Counted from the stretch's first letter, positions 1 through 8,868 are shown. The stretch is DNA of 64,000 bases from Candidatus Latescibacterota bacterium (GCA_965203805.1 OZ241917.1:864001-928000), one strand, 5' to 3'. Notes: generated by a model not told the origin, from the letters alone. Program-made: numbers and translations.

Positions 1-231
1 CTTCGTTCGGGTAGGATACTCGGGAATCGTCGTCCCGGCGTCAGCGACGTGCTGGTACGCGACCATGCCCCGTTTGTGTGCAACAGCTTCGAGGGTAAAC
101 GACCGCTGATCGGCTTCGACCACCGTATCGACACCCCCGTGGTCCCAGCCCAGTTCCTCAATGAAGAGCGCACGGAGGTTGAATTCTTCCAGATACGTCC
201 TGACTTTGTCTCTGTTCAATTTTGAGGGCAC
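1..231 (-). CDS. N-terminus (partial, runs off window) of a probable R-M DNA methyltransferase, Eco57I/type IIG-like partner of the PLD-helicase
   Basis: Manual translation from GTG at 231, with AGGGG SD upstream: MPSKLNRDKVRTYLEEFNLRALFIEELGWD...LEAVAHKRGMVAY...IPEYPTRTK. It resembles N-termini of MTases found after this helicase family. Catalytic motifs lie outside the window. Confidence 0.6.
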   Translation of the reverse strand, partial: MPSKLNRDKVRTYLEEFNLRALFIEELGWDHGGVDTVVEADQRSFTLEAVAHKRGMVAYQHVADAGTTIPEYPTRTK

Positions 232-270
232 CTGGATGTCCCCTGGTATGTTATGTCCGAACGAGATTGA

Positions 271-390
271 TTAGTGAAGCGGTTCGATTTCGTCGGATCG
301 CGCGAAGTCGTGCTGGTTCTGCGTTACCAGCCTTCGGACGCCATGGGTTGCTATTTTAGCCAAGTTGAAAAGCGTGTCACTGGCCATCAT
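271..390 (-). pseudogene. Internally deleted PIN/VapC toxin relic (39 aa)
   Basis: ATG overlaps the end of AbrB 377-649. Translation MMASDTLFNLAKIATHGVRRLVTQNQHDFARSDEIEPLH; the tail matches the PIN C-terminal pattern HGVxxLxTxNxxDF, and the core is absent. Confidence 0.6.
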
Positions 391-649
391 CGCCATAGAT
401 CTCATCCCTATTCCACGACGTCGTCTTTCCAGTCCTGACCGTCACCAGATCCAGCATCGGGACATCGGCGTCTGTCGTCCCCGTCCCGTCCAACTCGTCT
501 AGATCGGATTCATTATCGGACCTGGGACGAAGAAGGAGGCCGTCAGGTCCTTTCTCAATCTCAAGATGGTCTCCCGGACCTACCCGCAGCATGTTTTGCA
601 CCCGCTTTGGTAGGGTGACCTGACCCTGTGAACTTATCTTAACGATCAT
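377..649 (-). CDS. AbrB/MazE/SpoVT-family antitoxin (copy 1)
   Basis: KISSQGQVTLPKRVQNMLRVGPGDHLEI motif; VapB-like tail WNRDEIY; AAGGAAG SD. Confidence 0.85.
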   Translation of the reverse strand: MIVKISSQGQVTLPKRVQNMLRVGPGDHLEIEKGPDGLLLRPRSDNESDLDELDGTGTTDADVPMLDLVTVRTGKTTSWNRDEIYGDDGQ

Positions 650-675
650 GGGGACTTCCTTAGAACCCGATTGAG

Positions 676-722
676 GGTAACCGAACCAGTACTATTGCGT
701 CAATCCCTTAGCGACGGGTCAT
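676..722 (-). pseudogene. 5' relic of vapC (PIN) with a nonsense codon
   Basis: Reads MTRR*GIDAIVLVRL versus MTRRFGIDTSVLVRL for the intact toxin at 7007-7405, with the same overlap on the antitoxin end. Confidence 0.8.
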
Positions 723-942
723 ACGATTGTCTCCTGAAGTCCTGGAGATCAAATGTCCCACGTCCGCGCCGGATTTTGTGGCGCAACGTCCCGAGACGGG
801 TACAAACGATGCGCCCCGGCCTCAGGACGAACCCGTCGGGCCCTTCTACGATTTCGAGTTGGTCGCCCGGGCCAACGCCCAGTGCGTTAAGCAATCGTTC
901 GGGCAACGTGACCTGTCGTTTCGACGTTATTTTGACGATCAT
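700..942 (-). CDS. AbrB/MazE/SpoVT-family antitoxin (copy 2, orphan)
   Basis: 80 aa starting MIVKITSKRQVTLP; 14 differences in 80 aa from copy 3 (7383-7625) by manual count. Confidence 0.88.
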   Translation of the reverse strand: MIVKITSKRQVTLPERLLNALGVGPGDQLEIVEGPDGFVLRPGRIVCTRLGTLRHKIRRGRGTFDLQDFRRQSYDPSLRD

Positions 943-965
943 GGATATTCGGCTGAGATTCATCG

Positions 966-1151
966 GACTACGAAACAAAAGAAAGGACTACGAAAGATAC
1001 GAAAAGGCACGAAAAAGGATCAAAGACATTGGACTACGAAAGACACTAAGTGGTGCGAAATAGGATCAGAGGCATGAACTACGAAAAACGCGAAAAGGCA
1101 CGAAATAGGATCACAAGCACGGACTACGAAAGATACAAAATGACGCGAAAA
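966..1151 (+). repeat. Tandem ~45-bp repeat array 1 (about 4 units plus a partial unit)
   Basis: Units start at 986, 1032, 1077 and 1122. Consensus about RACTACGAAA GATACGAAAA GGCACGAAAT AGGATCAGAG GCAYG. Confidence 0.92.
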
Positions 1152-1160
1152 TGAGGTCTG

Positions 1161-1544
1161 TCATTCGTTTACGAAACGTTCGTATTCCAGCCCTGGATGA
1201 TGGCCGAAGTTGACGAGCAGGCCGAGTTTAACGCTTGTTGATTTCAGGTAGTTGATGATTTGGGCACGATGTTCATCTTTCAATTGTTTCACTGCCTTGA
1301 TTTTCACGATAATTCTGCCGAAACAGAAAAAATCCGGCTGGTAGAATTGCTTCAATGCCTGTCCTTTGTACCGAAGTTTCAAGTCCATTTTCTCTTCGTA
1401 CGTGATCGCCGAGGAAGCGAATTCCATCGCAAGACACTCCTGGTAAACCGCTTCAAGAAAGCCGGCTCCTTTTTCCTTGTACACTTCGAAGCAGGCACCG
1501 ATTATCCGATAGCTTTCCTCTTTGTAGACGATTTTTCCTGTCAT
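1161..1544 (-). CDS. GxxExxY protein (PD-(D/E)XK nuclease fold)
   Basis: 127 aa with GAGFLEAVY motif, QPDF...IIVKIKAV and LGLLVNFG. The usual catalytic E-x-K reads K-x-K here. Confidence 0.92.
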   Translation of the reverse strand: MTGKIVYKEESYRIIGACFEVYKEKGAGFLEAVYQECLAMEFASSAITYEEKMDLKLRYKGQALKQFYQPDFFCFGRIIVKIKAVKQLKDEHRAQIINYLKSTSVKLGLLVNFGHHPGLEYERFVNE

Positions 1545-1547
1545 ACC

Positions 1548-1576
1548 TTTCGCGTCTTTTCGCGGGTTTCGTAGTT
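1548..1576 (-). repeat. Inverted copy of the triple-CGAAA core upstream of gxxExxY
   Basis: TTTCGCGTCTTTTCGCGGGTTTCGTAGTT; further inverted copies at 1944-1972, 2071-2099 and 2104-2133. Confidence 0.88.
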
Positions 1577-1580
1577 AATC

Positions 1581-1604
1581 AAGCCCATGGAGCAGATGAT
1601 TCGA
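1581..1604 (-). repeat. Duplicated helicase 3' end (RIICSMGL)
   Basis: 22/24 identical to 2138-2161; a second, more degenerate copy lies at about 1977-2015. Confidence 0.88.
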
Positions 1605-1660
1605 TGGCTTTCTCTTTGTGGATGTCCACTCGAAAATGCGAAATTAAGATCAAAGGCATG

Positions 1661-1823
1661 AACTACGAAAGACACGAAAAGGCACGAAACAGGATCAGAG
1701 GCAGGAACTACGAAAAATACGAAAAGGCACGAAATAGGATCAGAAGCAGGAACTACGAAAAATACGAAATGACGCGAAATAGATTCAAAAGAACAGGCGA
1801 CCAAAGATACGAAGGGCACGAAA
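1661..1823 (+). repeat. Tandem 45-bp repeat array 2 (3 units plus a degenerate unit)
   Basis: Units start at 1661, 1706 and 1751 (exact 45-bp period) and about 1798. Confidence 0.92.
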
Positions 1824-1940
1824 GAGTATCCCTGATTCGTTTACGTAACGTTCGTATTCCAGTCTTGGATGATGACCGAAGTTGACGAGCAGGCCGAGTT
1901 TCACGCCTGTTGCATTCACGTAGACGATTTTTCCTGTCAT
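1785..1940 (-). pseudogene. Mini-gxxExxY with an in-frame internal deletion
   Basis: MTGKIVY|VNATGVKLGLLVNFGHHPRLEYERYVNE... joins the first 7 and last ~28 codons of the 1161-1544 gene, then reads into the repeats. Confidence 0.88.
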
Positions 1941-2037
1941 TTCTTTCGCGTCTTTTCGCGACTTTAGTAGTTTATCAGACCCATAGAACAGATGAATTAC
2001 GGCTTCTGCGGTTCATGTTCCACTCCGACAACGTGAG

Positions 2038-2067
2038 CTACTCTATGCCGACGATTTCTCTACTCAT
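2038..2067 (-). pseudogene. Third gxxExxY start relic (MSREIVGIE*)
   Basis: 2050-2099 aligns to 1527-1576 (start codon plus upstream inverted repeat). Confidence 0.6.
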
Positions 2068-2097
2068 ACCTTTCGTGTCTTTTCGCGTCTTTCGTAG

Positions 2098-5000
2098 TTA
2101 TTCTTTCCTCGTCTTTTCGCGATTTTCGTAGTCAACCAAGCCCATAGAACAGATGATTCGAGGCTCCTGCGGTTCGTCGTCCTCGTGCACGACACACAGC
2201 CGCCCATCTTCCCAAATCTCGATCACGACAGAAGCCAGATCCTCGTCAGAAATACCGCTGCGCAGTTGCCGGTTCAGTTTATCCACGGTCGATTGCCGCA
2301 GCGGATATCGGTAGATCTCACCCACCGCCCGCCGAAGCTGTTGTGTATCGAAGAGCGTTCCCTCGACACTCTCGGCATAATTCTTCAGCCGTTCATAGGT
2401 GCGGAATCTCGCACCGGAAGGTCGTCCCAGTTGACCGCCGACCTGATTCTCCTCGCGCGCGATCCGTTCCGCGGCTTTTCCGACAAGATTGTGATGTTTC
2501 TCGTGCCTGGGCAACGCGGGAGTATCCGGTTTGCATTCTGCTGCACGCAGGATTTCAAACTGGCTTTCTGTGACGCTGTCCCCTTTCCGATCCATCCACG
2601 AGAGGGCATCGTTGTCCTGTGTCGTCCGCATGTAAACGAGTACACCAGCCTGCTGATTCTCTTTAGACGAGGCGGCTTTGGAGGTATGTACGACGTCCGG
2701 CATCTCCTCCACTTTTTTCTCCAGCGCCTGATCGGCAGTTGTGGCGTTTTTCCAGATCTGATAGGCATAAGAAGCCAGGTCTACCTCGGAATCGTCGTCG
2801 CCGTCAAGGATTCCGGTCTGTTCGTTATACAGATCCACGACGGAACGAGTGTCATCGTCCTCGAAAAAGGCTTCGTCGGTTCCCACGACTTCGGCATTCT
2901 CGCCGAGGCGCTGCCTTACGCGGGCGCGTAACCGAATCACGCGTTCAATGCCCTCGGCAGGAAGAAAGGAGTAACAGAGGATGTCCTGCGCCGACTGCCC
3001 TATACGGTCCACACGTCCGGCTCTCTGAATCAGCCGGATTATCGCCCACGGAAGGTCGTAATTGACCACGATGGCGCAATCCTGCAGGTTCTGTCCCTCG
3101 CTCAACACGTCCGTCGCGACCAGCACTCTGAGTTCCTCATCAGCCGCGGTCTGCCCGCCCTTTTCATTGCTCCTGGGACTGAAACGCCAGGCAAGCTGAG
3201 TCGGATCCGCCGAACCGCCCGTAACGCCGGACAACCGTTCCACGCCCCCATCCCTGAGTTGACGTTCCAGGTAATGTACCGTGTCGGCGAACTGCGTGAA
3301 GACCAGAACCTTGTCACGTGGATGCTTGTCCGCAAGGATTTCCTGCAGCGCGACGAGCTTGGCGTCGAGTGACGGATTCCATTGGCCGAAGTCCTCCAAC
3401 ATTTCACGCAACGTTTTAGTGTCCGACAAAAGAGATTGCAGCAGTGACTCACCGAAATGACGCGGACTGAGCCACCGAAATCGACTTCTGTATCGTTCGG
3501 CGTAATCAGTGTAAACTCTCGTGGCGTGCCGACGGAACTCTTCCTCGGTTCTTAGAGAGTGTTCGGTCTGATTCTGGCCGCCTTCGTCCTCTCCTTCGTC
3601 AAAAATGTCACCGGCGGCGCCGTCCGCATCCTCGTCGTAAGATTGGGGATCCAGAATGCCGGCATCTGTCGTGCCGATCGGCAGATCGAGTCCGTTTTCG
3701 ATGGCGTGGATAAAGATGAAGTTCCTCAGGACATGCCGCTCGATCGACAGCAGGAACGAATGACCGCTGCTTTCTAGGCGTTTGAACAGATTCGTGCGGC
3801 AGAAGCCCATGAGGCGCCGTCCCGCGCGCGACAGGTCCTGCAGGATCCGGTCCTCGGCAGACGATGGCGGCGGGGCGACGGACGCCGCCAGGTAGTTTGC
3901 CAGACCGTAGCGCGGGAGTTCCAAACCATTGATAGAGGATACCACGTTGTCGTCGAATAGGCGCGCGTATTGGTTGTCGATTTCGAAACCCACGGTTCGG
4001 GGAACGCGAACGGGGAAATAGGAACGCGAGCCGTCTTCGAATGTCAGATACCTTCGTCCATTGGCCGGATCCAGCGTTGCGTAGTTCTCTTGAATAAAGC
4101 TGCGCGTGCGCCGTACGAGGTAGAGTCGCATCAACTCGCGCCAGTCGTCCGCGTATTCCGACTGTTCGAATGCCGCGAGAGACCGTACGTCTGCCTGATG
4201 GCGGCGAATGAACTCGGTTTCTCCCATCTCCCGTAGCAGGCGCTCGGGTCTGATTCCCAGGTCTTCATCCTCACGCACAAACAGTCGGATCTGGTTTGAG
4301 AGATCCTGGTACGTCTTATTGTACGGCGTGGCCGAAAGCAGGATGCACTTGCTTTCGTTCTCACGGATGTATTCCTGGATCGCACGGTAACGCTTGCCCT
4401 CACGGTTCCTGAGATTATGGCTCTCGTCGATCACAACCAGCCTGTAGCGTCGCATGTCGGGTAGTCTATTGATAGCCTGGCTGATCGAAAGTACCCGCGC
4501 ACGCAGCCGATACTCGTCGCGATAGTCCTCCCACATCGCCACCAGGTTTTTCGGGCAGATAATCAGCGTTGCTACCCCATGATCGTCTTCAAACACCCGC
4601 GCTAACGCCGTGGCCATCAGCGTTTTACCAAGCCCAACCACATCGCCGATGATAACACCGCCACGCTTGTTCAGGTGGTGTGCGGCGATCTTCACGGCGG
4701 CCACCTGGAAATCGAGAAGCTTGCTGCCGAAGTCGTTCGGAATTCGGAACTCAGTCAGACCCGCCCGGGCTTCCTGCGACAGGTGATAAGCCATCTTCAC
4801 GTAAATGTGGTACGGCGGAATCAGTCGAGGCCCCGCCCAACTTTCGTCGATAATCTGCGCCAACTCCTCAGAAATATCGATGCACCAGCGGTCGTTCCAG
4901 CGATCTTCGAACCATTGCGCAAGCTTAGCACACGCATCGTGATCCATCACGTCAACGTTCAACTCACCCTGCCGGGAAAGACCGGACTGCGTGAGATTGC

Positions 5001-5481
5001 TACTGCCGAGGTATCCGACTTTTGGATTGATGGGATCCGGCCGGAACAGCATGTACAGCTTGGCATGGAGCGGATCTCTGAGGAAGAGTTTGACAACGAC
5101 CTTGTTGGCCTTGATCTGTTTTGACAATCTGCGAAGCCCAGCCTCGTCTTTATTGTTTGGTGCTCCGATGACCAACTGATCCCTGAATTCTTCCGCGAGC
5201 CGTTTCTTCAGCCGAAGCGCGGTCTGATTGTCGAGTTTTGCATCCCGAGAGATCAGACTCCTGGCGAGTCGAAATTCCTCGTGCGGCAAGCGGTGCATGC
5301 CCACCAGCAAGCGGCAACAATGCCCCTCCCCACCCTTCCATTTTTCGACGTATTCGTCGATATTCCGCCACCCGCGCAGGTTGAAGTAGCCCACACAGAA
5401 ATCCGCACGTTCGGAAACCTCCATCGTCTCCTGAAGTGCAGGAAGAAGCGGCTGTTCAATATTGTCGAAAATACGCGGCAT
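2098..5481 (-). CDS. PLD-nuclease / SNF2-like SF2 helicase fusion (R-M-associated)
   Basis: PLD motif HAKLY..GSSNLT..ELNV; Walker A GDVVGLGKT; DESH; SATP; TDVLSEGQNLQ; QRAGRVDRIG. Confidence 0.92.
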   Translation of the reverse strand: MPRIFDNIEQPLLPALQETMEVSERADFCVGYFNLRGWRNIDEYVEKWKGGEGHCCRLLVGMHRLPHEEFRLARSLISRDAKLDNQTALRLKKRLAEEFRDQLVIGAPNNKDEAGLRRLSKQIKANKVVVKLFLRDPLHAKLYMLFRPDPINPKVGYLGSSNLTQSGLSRQGELNVDVMDHDACAKLAQWFEDRWNDRWCIDISEELAQIIDESWAGPRLIPPYHIYVKMAYHLSQEARAGLTEFRIPNDFGSKLLDFQVAAVKIAAHHLNKRGGVIIGDVVGLGKTLMATALARVFEDDHGVATLIICPKNLVAMWEDYRDEYRLRARVLSISQAINRLPDMRRYRLVVIDESHNLRNREGKRYRAIQEYIRENESKCILLSATPYNKTYQDLSNQIRLFVREDEDLGIRPERLLREMGETEFIRRHQADVRSLAAFEQSEYADDWRELMRLYLVRRTRSFIQENYATLDPANGRRYLTFEDGSRSYFPVRVPRTVGFEIDNQYARLFDDNVVSSINGLELPRYGLANYLAASVAPPPSSAEDRILQDLSRAGRRLMGFCRTNLFKRLESSGHSFLLSIERHVLRNFIFIHAIENGLDLPIGTTDAGILDPQSYDEDADGAAGDIFDEGEDEGGQNQTEHSLRTEEEFRRHATRVYTDYAERYRSRFRWLSPRHFGESLLQSLLSDTKTLREMLEDFGQWNPSLDAKLVALQEILADKHPRDKVLVFTQFADTVHYLERQLRDGGVERLSGVTGGSADPTQLAWRFSPRSNEKGGQTAADEELRVLVATDVLSEGQNLQDCAIVVNYDLPWAIIRLIQRAGRVDRIGQSAQDILCYSFLPAEGIERVIRLRARVRQRLGENAEVVGTDEAFFEDDDTRSVVDLYNEQTGILDGDDDSEVDLASYAYQIWKNATTADQALEKKVEEMPDVVHTSKAASSKENQQAGVLVYMRTTQDNDALSWMDRKGDSVTESQFEILRAAECKPDTPALPRHEKHHNLVGKAAERIAREENQVGGQLGRPSGARFRTYERLKNYAESVEGTLFDTQQLRRAVGEIYRYPLRQSTVDKLNRQLRSGISDEDLASVVIEIWEDGRLCVVHEDDEPQEPRIICSMGLVDYENREKTRKE

Positions 5482-5544
5482 CAAGAACCCTCGCTACGTA
5501 TGGGGATCGCAATCGCTTTTCACCTCGGGAATCGGGCAATACCA

Positions 5545-7006: not shown

Positions 7007-7405
7007 CTACAGGTGGCGAACATCGGGCAGGGCGGCCATCTTTTGGTCGAGCGTGAGGACTTGCATTCCAGCGCGTGAATAGTCGTCGGCGATGAGCCGG
7101 TCAAACAGGCCGGCGCCGCCGGAAGCATGAAGGGCTTCGATAACCGAGCGCCCGTTCAGGGGGGAGACCAGGCCGCTGCCCAGCGCGTCGAGCAAAGAGG
7201 TTCGGGCATCGGCTTTCGATACGCCATAGTGGTGCTGTACCGCCACGTAGGACTCTCCGACGACCTGGTTTGAAACGAAGATTTCATGGCCGTGCTCACG
7301 GACCAGCGCGCCAAGTTTGCTTACGCAATACACGAAGTGTTCTTCCGGATCTCTGGTGAGCAACCGCACGAGGACTGACGTGTCAATCCCGAAGCGACGG
7401 GTCAT
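7007..7405 (-). CDS. vapC: PIN-domain toxin (VapC-like)
   Basis: GIDTSVLVR...E...DRLI...LTLD acidic PIN residues; overlaps the antitoxin end. Confidence 0.88.
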   Translation of the reverse strand: MTRRFGIDTSVLVRLLTRDPEEHFVYCVSKLGALVREHGHEIFVSNQVVGESYVAVQHHYGVSKADARTSLLDALGSGLVSPLNGRSVIEALHASGGAGLFDRLIADDYSRAGMQVLTLDQKMAALPDVRHL

Positions 7406-7625
7406 ACGATTTCTCCCGGAATTTCTGGAGATCAAACGTCCCACGTCCGCGCCGGATCTTGTCGCGCAGCGTACCGAGACGGGAAAGATCAATTCGTCTG
7501 GGCTTCAGCGCGAACCCGTCGGGACCTTCTACGATCTCGAGCTGGTCGCCCGGGCCTACCCCCAGAGCGTCCAGCACACGCGCAGGAAAGGTGACCTGGC
7601 GTTTTGACGTGATTTTGACAATCAT
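7383..7625 (-). CDS. AbrB/MazE/SpoVT antitoxin (copy 3, intact TA pair)
   Basis: MIVKITSKRQVTFP; GGAGGT SD. Confidence 0.9.
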   Translation of the reverse strand: MIVKITSKRQVTFPARVLDALGVGPGDQLEIVEGPDGFALKPRRIDLSRLGTLRDKIRRGRGTFDLQKFREKSYDPSLRD

Positions 7626-7634
7626 GACGCACCT

Positions 7635-7673
7635 CCTTACTATTAATATAATAAAGTAAGGCAAACAGGTCAA
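7635..7673 (-). promoter_or_regulatory. TA promoter with palindromic operator
   Basis: TTGACC-17-TATATT; inverted repeat CCTTACT (7635-7641) / AGTAAGG (7655-7661) brackets the -10. Confidence 0.7.
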
Positions 7674-7674
7674 G

Positions 7675-8868
7675 TCAGTCGCCACCCAACTCCATGCCCC
7701 CCGGCATCCCCCCCGCCCGGCGTTGCGAGCCCGGGCGAAAGTCGGGGACCTTCAGGGGCGTGCTCCCCGCCTCGATCGAATCGTGCGCTCTGATTGCGGG
7801 CGCGATGGTGTCCATGGCCGTGTACACGTCCAGGGGAAGCGGCTTTCCCTCCCGCACGGCGTCTCTGAAGTGAAGGTGAACGTAATAGTCGGCGTCGCCG
7901 TGGCCGCTGCCCCGGGACCCTGAAGGGGCATCCCTGCGCTGGTACTGCCAGTCCACCTCCGCCCAATCGTTCATCTGAGTATCGGCAAGCCACATCTTCG
8001 GCTTCTCGTCGAGCGACCGGCGCCACTCGATACCGCCCTCGGTGCCGATGAACTGCCACCAGTGGTGGTCGCCTTGCGGCCTGGGCTGGGTAAACCCGCA
8101 CAGCATCCGGATCACTGTGTCCTTCTCCGTCTTCATCAACGCGACCTGTATGTCCGGACGAGAGATCTCAGGGAAGGCGTAGCTGGGCTCGTTCGTGCTC
8201 ATTCCCACCACCTCGACGACCCGATCGTCGAGCACATTCAGAACCACACTCATATCGTGAGAACCGATGCCGCCGATGATTGTGGGTAGCGTGTGCAGCA
8301 CCGTCGGTTCGGCCTCGGGATGATCGGGCAGCGATTCGATGGGATACTGCTTACCCGTCTTGAAATCCTGGAAATACTGATGCGTGCCGTACCACCCCAC
8401 GTACTGGCCCTCGGCGTAGGTAATCCTGCCCAGCCGTCCCTGTCCTACGAGTTGCCGCCAGCCCTCCACAACCCCCCAGTACCGCGTCTGCTCGGCCAGG
8501 CTGTATACCAGCCCCGTCCGCTCCACGTTGGTGACGATTCGCCAACAGTCCGACATCGCGTACGCCGCGGGCACCTCGGAGTTCACGTGTTTTCCCGCCT
8601 CCAGCGCCCGCGCGGCCATCTCCCCGACTTCCTTCTGCCTCACACACAGACCCACCGCATCCGTCCCGTCGAACGCGAGGAAATCCTCATAATCGGAGAA
8701 CACGTTCACATCATCGCCGTCGCGGATGTGTCCCAGCGCACGCTCCTGCAGGGGTTCGATCCAGTCATAGATCGCCGTAATCCGGTACCCCGGGATCTCC
8801 TGCAACAGTCGAATCCAGTTCAGGGCGCGGTGGCCCAGCCCGGCGATCCCGATTCGCACGTTGTCCAT
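7675..8868 (-). CDS. Gfo/Idh/MocA-family oxidoreductase
   Basis: RIGIAGLGHR Rossmann motif; ALEAGKHVNSEVP. Confidence 0.9.
   Translation of the reverse strand: MDNVRIGIAGLGHRALNWIRLLQEIPGYRITAIYDWIEPLQERALGHIRDGDDVNVFSDYEDFLAFDGTDAVGLCVRQKEVGEMAARALEAGKHVNSEVPAAYAMSDCWRIVTNVERTGLVYSLAEQTRYWGVVEGWRQLVGQGRLGRITYAEGQYVGWYGTHQYFQDFKTGKQYPIESLPDHPEAEPTVLHTLPTIIGGIGSHDMSVVLNVLDDRVVEVVGMSTNEPSYAFPEISRPDIQVALMKTEKDTVIRMLCGFTQPRPQGDHHWWQFIGTEGGIEWRRSLDEKPKMWLADTQMNDWAEVDWQYQRRDAPSGSRGSGHGDADYYVHLHFRDAVREGKPLPLDVYTAMDTIAPAIRAHDSIEAGSTPLKVPDFRPGSQRRAGGMPGGMELGGD

Follow-up and report, generated by a model that had tools for sequence, protein, structure and literature searches.

A duplicated and decaying GxxExxY gene cassette at a helicase gene end in Candidatus Latescibacterota, and its relatives with phased inverted arms across bacterial phyla

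The 64,000-nucleotide stretch of a Candidatus Latescibacterota bacterium genome analysed here in full (GCA_965203805.1 OZ241917.1:864001-928000; hereafter the window) carries, at the 3' end of a helicase gene, a stack of three units built from a small gene of the GxxExxY family (PF13366, TIGR04256) and from short phased repeats that flank it (the arms). The reading we favor, at a probability of about 0.6, is that a single old insertion of a GxxExxY cassette was later duplicated and is now decaying, and that the cassette type is widespread, its protein binding the arms and acting there as a nuclease. Direct observation supplies the anatomy of the stack, the duplications it has in common with sister species, the generality of the arms and their sharp outer boundary, the filled, empty and remnant sites, and the association of one protein residue with one arm base. 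The cassette type is real, widespread and, as far as we have found, undescribed in print. In the proposed history, a cassette of ~450 bp (left arm, 127-codon gene, inverted arm) would have inserted at the helicase stop codon, before a methyltransferase gene, after which tandem duplications (of a 127-bp unit, of a larger one with gene and right arms, and those giving 45-bp right-arm arrays) would have built the stack. In both arms the protein would recognise every 9-bp unit by its bases, the fifth of the CGAAA core being read by residue 23. Its nuclease site would act on or beside the arms so as to maintain the cassette, or to copy or move it into operon junctions.

The stack consists of the following features, given in window coordinates, as are all positions below; all listed features lie on the minus strand.

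5484..2098, minus strand: open reading frame (ORF) of a PLD (HKD) + SNF2 helicase, ending ...RIICSMGLVDYENREKTRKE and a stop codon
2175-2133, minus strand: native helicase 3' segment, copy 1, duplicated downstream (direct-repeat family; tblastn with the helicase C-terminus)
2132-2101, minus strand: degenerate extra left arm, in tandem with the next arm (sequence; inverted pairs with the downstream arrays)
2098-2071, minus strand: left arm 1, ACTACGAAA-gacg-CGAAA-agaca-CGAAA (sequence; inverted pairs with the downstream arrays)
ATG 2067, 9 codons, stop 2040-2038, minus strand: unit 1 gene stub (homologous junction in G013 and G008)
2015..2067, minus strand: unit 1 stub plus what is left of the 127-bp tandem unit's junction (copies at 1905 and 2032 lie 127 apart)
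2014-1973, minus strand: helicase 3' segment, copy 2 (sequence, repeats, tblastn)
1972-1944, minus strand: left arm 2, its first unit being ACTACTAAA (sequence, repeats)
1940..1785, minus strand: unit 2 internally deleted gene (ATG 1940, 51-amino-acid ORF)
1639-1782, minus strand: right-arm array of unit 2, 3.2 copies of a 45-bp unit (Tandem Repeats Finder, 87% matches)
~1636-1577, minus strand: junction remnant plus helicase 3' segment, copy 3 (sequence, repeats, tblastn, relatives' junctions)
1576-1548, minus strand: left arm 3 (sequence, repeats)
1544..1161, minus strand: unit 3 full-length GxxExxY gene, 127 amino acids (PF13366 E 1.9e-39, TIGR04256 E 2.3e-39)
965-1150, minus strand: right-arm array of unit 3, ~4.5 copies of the 45-bp unit (repeats, inverted pairs)

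An initial annotation of the window had described a threefold minus-strand succession of helicase 3' end, triple-CGAAA arm and GxxExxY start, with tandem arrays of the inverted arm after units 2 and 3, and had seen only a gene start in unit 1, a collapsed gene in unit 2 and a full-length gene in unit 3. Sequence and repeat searches confirm the succession, Tandem Repeats Finder and the inverted pairs confirm the 45-bp arrays, and the state of each unit is as described, with boundaries right to ~10-30 bases. Left arms in the window have the general form ACTACGAAA-N4-CGAAA-N5-CGAAA. The repeat search gives 35 inverted pairs between left arms and array units (e.g. 1661-1689 vs 2071-2099, 29 nt, 93%) and a 96-nt direct-repeat family at 1509, 1905, 2032 and 2066, with spacings of 396, 127 and 34. 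The unit 2 array holds one inverted arm per 45-bp unit (1752-1779, 1706-1734 and 1661-1689 on the + strand), while that of unit 3, placed by Tandem Repeats Finder at 985-1140 (45-bp period, 3.5 copies, 76% matches), holds inverted arms at 1123-1150, 1078-1105, 1033-1060 and 987-1014 and a partial one at 967-988. The ORF of unit 2 fuses 8 N-terminal codons to the C-terminal ~40; this remnant matches PF13366 at profile positions 91-116 (E 6.5e-4, 20.5 bits, below the 22-bit cut-off), and the unit 2 gene at 1835-1928 matches the unit 3 gene at 1163-1256 as an 88% direct repeat. The final helicase codons after ...SMGLV, together with the stop codon, come from the cassette left arm. Helicase orthologues of relatives with an empty site terminate in ...IICSMGLIG and a stop, ...IICSMGL being the native end, and helicase-like tails such as ...YENREKTRKE should be annotated as repeat read-through, not protein.

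Forty relatives were searched with the helicase, and the DNA downstream of 17 orthologues was compared. In seven species of another genus (G025, G028, G029, G030, G035, G039, G040) just 13-18 nt lie between the helicase stop and the methyltransferase start, which supplies the empty junction that the initial annotation had proposed to seek in relatives. Their congener G026 has a frameshifted cassette at the same helicase junction, and G015 and G011 have AbrB alone (plus PIN) inserted there; the number of copies, and the order in which cassette and AbrB genes follow each other, vary among relatives. The 127-bp tandem unit runs from ~35 codons before the helicase end through the left arm to ~10 codons into the gene. 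Within the window's genus it occurs in G013 (2 copies), G008 (5 copies), G001 and the window, with an identical junction sequence in all, and the deletion junction of unit 2 is identical to that of the only gene copy in G007. Since the 127-bp junction is common to G013, G008 and G001, and the unit 2 deletion to G007, the duplications are inherited. The copies run head to tail, one junction is inherited and copy number differs between relatives, as in plain tandem duplication, and the stack reads clearly as ordinary tandem duplication and decay, not as three insertions.

Decay is visible in each unit. Of the unit 1 gene just a stub is left, the unit 2 gene has an old internal deletion, and codon 81 of the unit 3 gene (1304-1302) is AAA (Lys), whereas 17 of 18 genus proteins, and no fewer than 90% of 88 alignment rows, have Glu81 of the D...ExK motif. 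A related strain (X4) has C at + strand position 1304, hence GAA at codon 81, and the E81K change is evidently private to the strain. Other copies are damaged as well (the frameshift of G026; a stop codon in the G002 copy). The window locus is, by all these signs, decaying, and its copy has the look of a dead, duplicated relic. Three of the rearrangements, namely the 127-bp duplication, the G005/G006-type duplication and the unit 2 internal deletion, break 18-28 nt into the gene, just past ...AAAATCGTC (window 2040-2067, 1915-1940; L030, L028, L032); microhomologies (GAGGA; ATCnnCTAC) can explain two of these three early-gene breaks. A separate observation concerns L051 (G005:C234), a subfamily A cassette with helicase-like remnants on a contig other than that of the genome's helicase. 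It lies directly after a DUF2283-like gene whose last codons run into the left arm, and the nucleotidyltransferase/HEPN-like pair downstream of it is common to the G002 and G006 copies.

The initial annotation had cast gene and flanks as a mobile or self-amplifying cassette with a preferred target at the helicase end. As an account of the stack, an active self-amplifying system that preferred this gene end and was inserted or copied there three times strikes us as quite improbable. It would suit the head-to-tail order of the units, the filling of exactly the same junction in G026 (of another genus and family) where 7 congeners are empty, and the recurrence, with different junctions, of tandem duplications starting at the left arm in G008, G001 and G005/G006. 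However, sister species have the 127-bp junction and the unit 2 deletion too, which marks the units as inherited; nowhere else in the genome is there a copy of the gene or of the 45-bp or 127-bp unit; the sole full-length copy has Lys at the catalytic Glu; and subfamily A copies elsewhere (G005 C234, G002) retain a helicase-like remnant, as rearranged descendants would. What survives of the mobile cassette is a conserved, horizontally spread unit, without three insertions or self-amplification in the stack. The preferred target has gained one further case (G026) and nothing beyond it, and the decayed plain tandem duplication, which the annotation had set against its own proposal, is what was found. 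It is scarcely credible that the stack arose in assembly. Short repeats are prone to mis-assembly, and the best-matching runs X1 and X2, whose contigs are identical to the window over 829-2500 and 600-2500, come from one sample that may be the source; yet contigs from another sample of that study (X3) are likewise identical over 1112-1602 and 1648-2408, and X4, from another study and 95-99% alike, gives a contig over 1192-1697 that bridges the unit 2/3 junction. Sister species moreover carry homologous stacks with other copy numbers. Joints inside the arrays of X4 were set aside as repeat or strain effects.

The unit 3 product (1544..1161) scores 135.1 bits against PF13366 (cut-off 22) and 134.4 bits against TIGR04256 (cut-off 35), and the AlphaFold model of a close relative (L076) has the PD-(D/E)XK fold with an alpha-alpha-beta core at pLDDT 94.5; profile match and model together bear out the fold assignment of the initial annotation. 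The best PDB fold matches of the model are generic (Cas4, lambda exonuclease and Hjc, TM ~0.5 or less). A PDB sequence search with the gene product gave 0 matches, PADLOC and PHROGs searches with the gene gave 0 matches, and a two-copy dimer prediction scored 0.00, which is not evidence either way. In broad alignment A1, G28, E31 and Y34 of the GxxExxY motif are invariant. The window copy retains catalytic residues D71 and K83 and has Lys instead of Glu at residue 81; it is a family member by sequence whose full-length protein is probably inactive. The family is large, with 12,146 cluster representatives at E <=0.001 and 3,054 at 1e-10 (50%-identity clusters). The window's genus (labelled Candidatus Latescibacterota in public titles) has five GxxExxY subfamilies, each with a phased flank motif of its own (CGAAA, CACAAAG, AATCA, CAGGAT or CACAAAA), and G000, the window's own genome, has 4 PF13366 loci, each of a different subfamily. 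In the available portions of a 2012 superfamily survey (PMC3424549) the function of PF13366 is given as Unknown, and the accessible literature text names GxxExxY merely as a domain beside a CRISPR-associated reverse transcriptase. No description of flanking repeats or of a role for GxxExxY/PF13366/PDDEXK_3 was found in the literature searched, to the extent that its text was accessible.

A scan of one genome per species yielded 572 confirmed relatives, and the best 80 loci, whose proteins are 61-100% identical, were analysed. All 80 are close to subfamily A; coverage of the distant subfamilies comes from the genus and 12 other genomes. These loci span ~ten phyla, including Verrucomicrobiota, Planctomycetota, Lentisphaerota, Kiritimatiellia, Myxococcota, Pseudomonadota, Armatimonadota, Fibrobacterota and Calditrichota. 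An inverted flank match scoring at least 14 is present in 57 of the 73 loci with enough flank (shuffle maximum 15). A triple-motif arm pair is found in 63/80 loci, as against 20/5384 control placements within the same loci, and inverted phased motifs around homologues, as foreseen in the initial annotation, are thus general. The pair faces inward in 57 cases, outward in 10 and both ways in 4. When loci are aligned on the arm, conservation falls from 0.9-1.0 to ~0.3 exactly at the outer A of AAC(T/C)ACGAAA, giving terminal inverted repeats with a sharp outer boundary, as in insertion sequences (IS) and miniature inverted-repeat transposable elements (MITEs), and the unit so bounded is mostly 430-470 bp long (42 loci with both arms parsed). 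An upstream gene on the same strand often stops right next to the left arm or takes its stop codon from it, and in other phyla the cassette occurs in transporter and other housekeeping operons. Proteins 61-72% identical in ~ten phyla and in unrelated contexts argue for horizontal spread of the whole unit. In L083, L088 and L092, which belong to different phyla, an outer inverted pair GTAACTACTCAG.../...CTGAGTAGTTAC lies ~40-70 nt outside the arms and brackets the whole cassette, as if it were inside another palindromic element.

Site polymorphism is also seen at an ABC ATPase|permease junction of Opitutaceae, where 6 genomes are filled (with arms of CGAAA, CGGAA or CGAAT type), 11 are empty (several with overlapping stop and start codons) and 2 have remnants: just part of one arm is left in the nearest relative of a filled genome, and a further relative has gene-less arm remnants. 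The filled, empty, remnant and frameshifted sites fit a selfish element that invades, decays and is lost. Fold and site polymorphisms together suggest that the protein may cleave at the arms and that the cassette may move. At the same Opitutaceae junction, L173 (G057) and L178 (G089) have, upstream of the permease start, gene-less inverted repeats of another motif, GAACAGAAGG...AACGAAG, which elsewhere flanks R23-type GxxExxY genes (L221, L247).

An arm consists of three tandem 9-bp units (xAC[G/A]CGAAA), 28 nt in the left arm. Within a locus, the left arm and the reverse-complemented right arm are 96% identical over the motif positions and 72% over the variable ones; the corresponding values between loci are 88% and 58%. 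Where the pentamer is a variant (CGGAA, CGAAT or CAGAA), all six copies switch jointly, and such switching would be demanded by a reader of each unit, not by a stem alone. A candidate for the reading residue is number 23, at the end of the first helix and just before the GxxExxY motif, which tracks the fifth pentamer base. Across 148 non-redundant genes, Lys at this position goes with A in 55, G in 1 and T in 0; Asn with T in 18 and with A or G in 0; and Arg with G in 12, A in 1 and T in 0. Motifs found de novo at 108 loci agree (Lys in 60/63 A-type, Asn in 24/27 T-type, Arg in 13/16 G-type); there residue 23 has 1.02 of 1.35 bits of mutual information with the fifth base, the next best column having 0.70. 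Asn pairs with T in several motif families (CGAAT, CGGAT, CAAAT, CTAAT), and the window protein has Lys, matching its CGAAA arms. As an out-of-sample test, a search of 401 Verrucomicrobiota genomes for triple CGAAT gave matches in 64, and the reversed control pattern gave none; of 30 such loci inspected, 3 have a GxxExxY gene, each with Asn at residue 23, and 27 are gene-less. A modest link joins residue 11 (S/T) to pentamer base 3 (mutual information 0.34 of 0.67), and other top columns for pentamer bases 2 and 3 were rejected as looking like clade markers. On the best tree, residue 23 and the fifth base change together 7-8 times. The covariation of residue 23 with the fifth base makes it most likely that the protein binds the arms of its own cassette, and that it does so base-specifically; the arms look like the binding sites supposed in the initial annotation. 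That annotation's further idea of motifs that co-vary with the protein holds for arm variants, which change on both sides, and for deep subfamilies, which have their own motifs, and is weak within the close clade.

Several observations weigh against the favored reading. With respect to arm reading, 29 of the 148 genes lack a phased pentamer and 13 are mixed; just 2-4 residue-base pairs fall on well-supported branches (p 0.125-0.5), which leaves independence from descent unproven; the R/G group is a single clade; L079 combines Lys at residue 23 with CGAAT arms; and pentamer variants barely cluster on the close-clade protein tree, itself poorly resolved (13 changes vs a shuffled mean of 15.8 and a minimum of 14). 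With respect to arm geometry, 10 of the 80 loci have outward-facing arms, the flanking repeats of subfamily C are direct, and the left arm pairs with the first right arm in both minimum-free-energy and centroid folds, as an RNA-level role would have it. With respect to movement, no target-site duplication was found at the 42 loci with both ends parsed, filled and empty site pairs being too diverged to place the junction to the base; no genome examined has near-identical multiple copies; and blastn finds no other copy of the 45-bp unit, the 127-bp unit or the gene in the 5.87-Mb genome G000, counter to the initial suggestion that the 45-bp unit might be dispersed. Lacking near-identical multiple copies, and with gene and 45-bp unit unique in G000, the cassette gives no sign of recent transposition. 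Finally, arms occur without their gene: no N23 gene was found in CGAAT-rich G450 and G429, and G000 has 33 CACAAAG-type motifs with no gene of the cognate subfamily found.

Gene-less arms vary greatly between genomes. Triple-CGAAT matches number 63 in G241 and 34 in G070, and ACTACGAAA, set within mosaic intergenic repeats, occurs 73 times in G000 on both strands where ~23 would be expected; in the 5.1 Mb of G041 the single exact triple CGAAA is the one at the gene. The G000 mosaics (e.g. C1:3707719, 4170907, 3336666) are made of arm-like modules in fixed order, namely GTCAGC runs, the CACAAAG triple, ATGGATGGACAGGAT (46 copies) and the ACTACGAAA triple. Rfam at E <=1 gave 0 matches on 9 sources (the locus, dispersed repeats and another GxxExxY locus). 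Pirellulales-type loci (L105, L117, L124, L127, L129, L133, L150 and others; 10/80) have the inverted form upstream and the forward form downstream, with complete gene-less arm pairs adjoining the gene (~8 pairs at ~75 nt spacing in G042). A dependence of gene-less arms on a cognate gene, as in REP/RAYT systems, is possible.

One rival account is a domesticated partnership of the REP/RAYT type, in which an immobile single-copy gene would encode a nuclease that keeps up or spreads gene-less arm pairs of use to the host. Each subfamily has a single gene per genome, some genomes have far more gene-less arms than genes (27/30 of the triple-CGAAT loci; G241, G070), hairpin-like gene-less pairs adjoin genes, and CGAAT-rich G241, G270, G320, G413 and G070 do have the N23 gene. 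We nevertheless find this account rather unlikely, given that arms are confined to the gene in many genomes such as G041, that proteins 61-72% identical occur in unrelated contexts of ~ten phyla, and that solo arms lack a matching gene in G450 and G429, as does motif B in G000. Also unlikely is an element working at the RNA level, like the intervening sequence (IVS) of 23S rRNA, in which RNase III would cut an arm stem of ~28 bp in the transcript and so free a small mRNA from the host operon or insulate it, the protein having some other role. The Coxiella burnetii 23S rRNA IVS is, in the consulted part of PMC4990558, 428-444 nt long with a 28-bp terminal stem cut by RNase III, and the size and 28-nt arms of the cassette match it. 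The arm pairing in predicted folds, the usual position of cassettes inside operons, on the same strand and straight after a stop codon, and the analogous flanks of genes of the IVS protein family (PF05635) in G000 point the same way. A plain stem, however, requires neither the joint switch of six pentamers nor the tracking of an arm base by a residue; complementarity is relaxed exactly at the variable positions (72% vs 96%), the fold of the whole cassette is no more stable than shuffles (z +0.43), and outward-facing and direct arrangements exist. An RNA-level role of the arm stem is compatible with arm binding by a nuclease, and the two may coexist.

A last alternative takes the gene for an accessory nuclease of a helicase-methyltransferase defence system, with the repeats regulatory. 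It draws on the neighborhood, which in addition to the helicase comprises the following features.

978..700 and 649..377, minus strand: AbrB/MazE-type antitoxin genes (PF04014 E 6e-11 each)
downstream context 1..978, minus strand: PIN-like remnant after the second AbrB gene
231..1, minus strand: methyltransferase start (downstream context)

The helicase matches PLDc_2, SNF2-rel_dom and Helicase_C in Pfam and, in PADLOC, HKD+Snf2 C3a139 (E 3.4e-49) plus DrmD-like models, and is part of a defence-type locus; the GxxExxY gene sits between this PLD-SNF2 helicase and the methyltransferase, beside toxin-antitoxin genes. The cassette is nonetheless absent from the orthologous locus in 7 relatives, has no PADLOC or PHROGs match, and recurs in transporter and housekeeping operons of other phyla, which leaves the accessory role very improbable; a link of the cassette to defence function was rejected on the strength of the empty orthologous loci. 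As to the antitoxin genes, the AbrB gene at 978..700 has a close paralogue elsewhere in the window, an AbrB/MazE gene at 7685..7383 that is overlapped by a PIN-like ORF at 7492..7007 (minus strand). At 978..700 the PIN partner has been lost, and an AbrB-PIN pair is kept at the helicase junction in G015 and G002. This history suggests that the junction collects several kinds of small selfish modules.

A bolder generalization, which we offer tentatively and would not bet on, is that GxxExxY proteins are the enzymes of unnamed ~450-bp mobile cassettes, each recognising three phased 9-bp sites per inverted arm by a position-23 code of Lys for A, Asn for T and Arg for G, and that cutting at the arms moves or homes the cassette into operon junctions of many bacterial phyla. 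If so, a family of ~12,000 clusters at 50% identity would amount to a natural collection of small sequence-specific nucleases open to re-targeting. Should the protein indeed read the arms that flank its gene, an orphan family would acquire a definite role, one that bench experiments can test, and the K/N/R code allows a swap. Short phased repeats in the intergenic DNA of Verrucomicrobiota, Planctomycetota, Latescibacterota and others would likewise gain an origin.

Among known systems, the cassette fails a defining feature of each of REPIN/RAYT pairs, ORF-bearing IVS elements and IS/MITE pairs. Repetitive extragenic palindromic (REP) sequences and REPINs with their REP-associated tyrosine transposases (RAYT), insofar as the consulted part of PMC3116915 describes them, resemble it in having a low-copy gene flanked by an inverted short repeat, a repeat type specific to the subfamily, and a repeat also dispersed in some genomes as gene-less, hairpin-forming pairs. 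The analogy, drawn in the initial annotation, thus stands for the logic and not for the enzyme: the cassette protein is PD-(D/E)XK (PF13366, the only Pfam family found), not a Y1 HUH transposase. Moreover, the arm is three tandem 9-bp units, not a REP palindrome, arms occur at the gene only in many genomes, and gene plus arms recur across phyla in unrelated contexts. The IVS of 23S rRNA, to judge from the accessible text of PMC4990558, is similarly selfish and close in length to the cassette (~430-470 nt), with one small ORF within terminal inverted repeats of ~28 nt able to form a stem, sporadic in distribution and prone to ORF decay; in contrast, the cassette lies between or at the ends of protein-coding genes (here the helicase and AbrB/methyltransferase genes), not in rRNA helices, its ORF is PF13366, not PF05635, and its phased-repeat arms co-vary with a protein residue. 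The two full PF05635 genes (IVS protein, four-helix bundle) seen in G000, C1:1101813-1102130 (L156) and C1:3573050-3573364 (L157), have inverted phased short repeats of their own (of GGTCAGTGG type and CTGTCAGC type); L156 appears inside a methyltransferase-like reading frame whose C-terminal part continues downstream. With IS/MITE pairs the cassette shares a single gene between terminal inverted repeats, derivatives that lack the gene, and sites that are filled in some relatives and empty in others, but it has no visible target-site duplication, no identical multi-copy sets within a genome and no DDE, HUH, serine or tyrosine recombinase, and its arm polarity is reversed in 10/80 loci. Free-standing homing endonuclease genes include PD-(D/E)XK examples such as I-Ssp6803I. 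Unlike these, the cassette sits at many unrelated sites and brings its own inverted arms, and its protein has no PDB sequence match and generic fold matches; like them, it presents a small nuclease gene that is intact, degenerate, remnant or empty at one orthologous site, as in the homing cycle.

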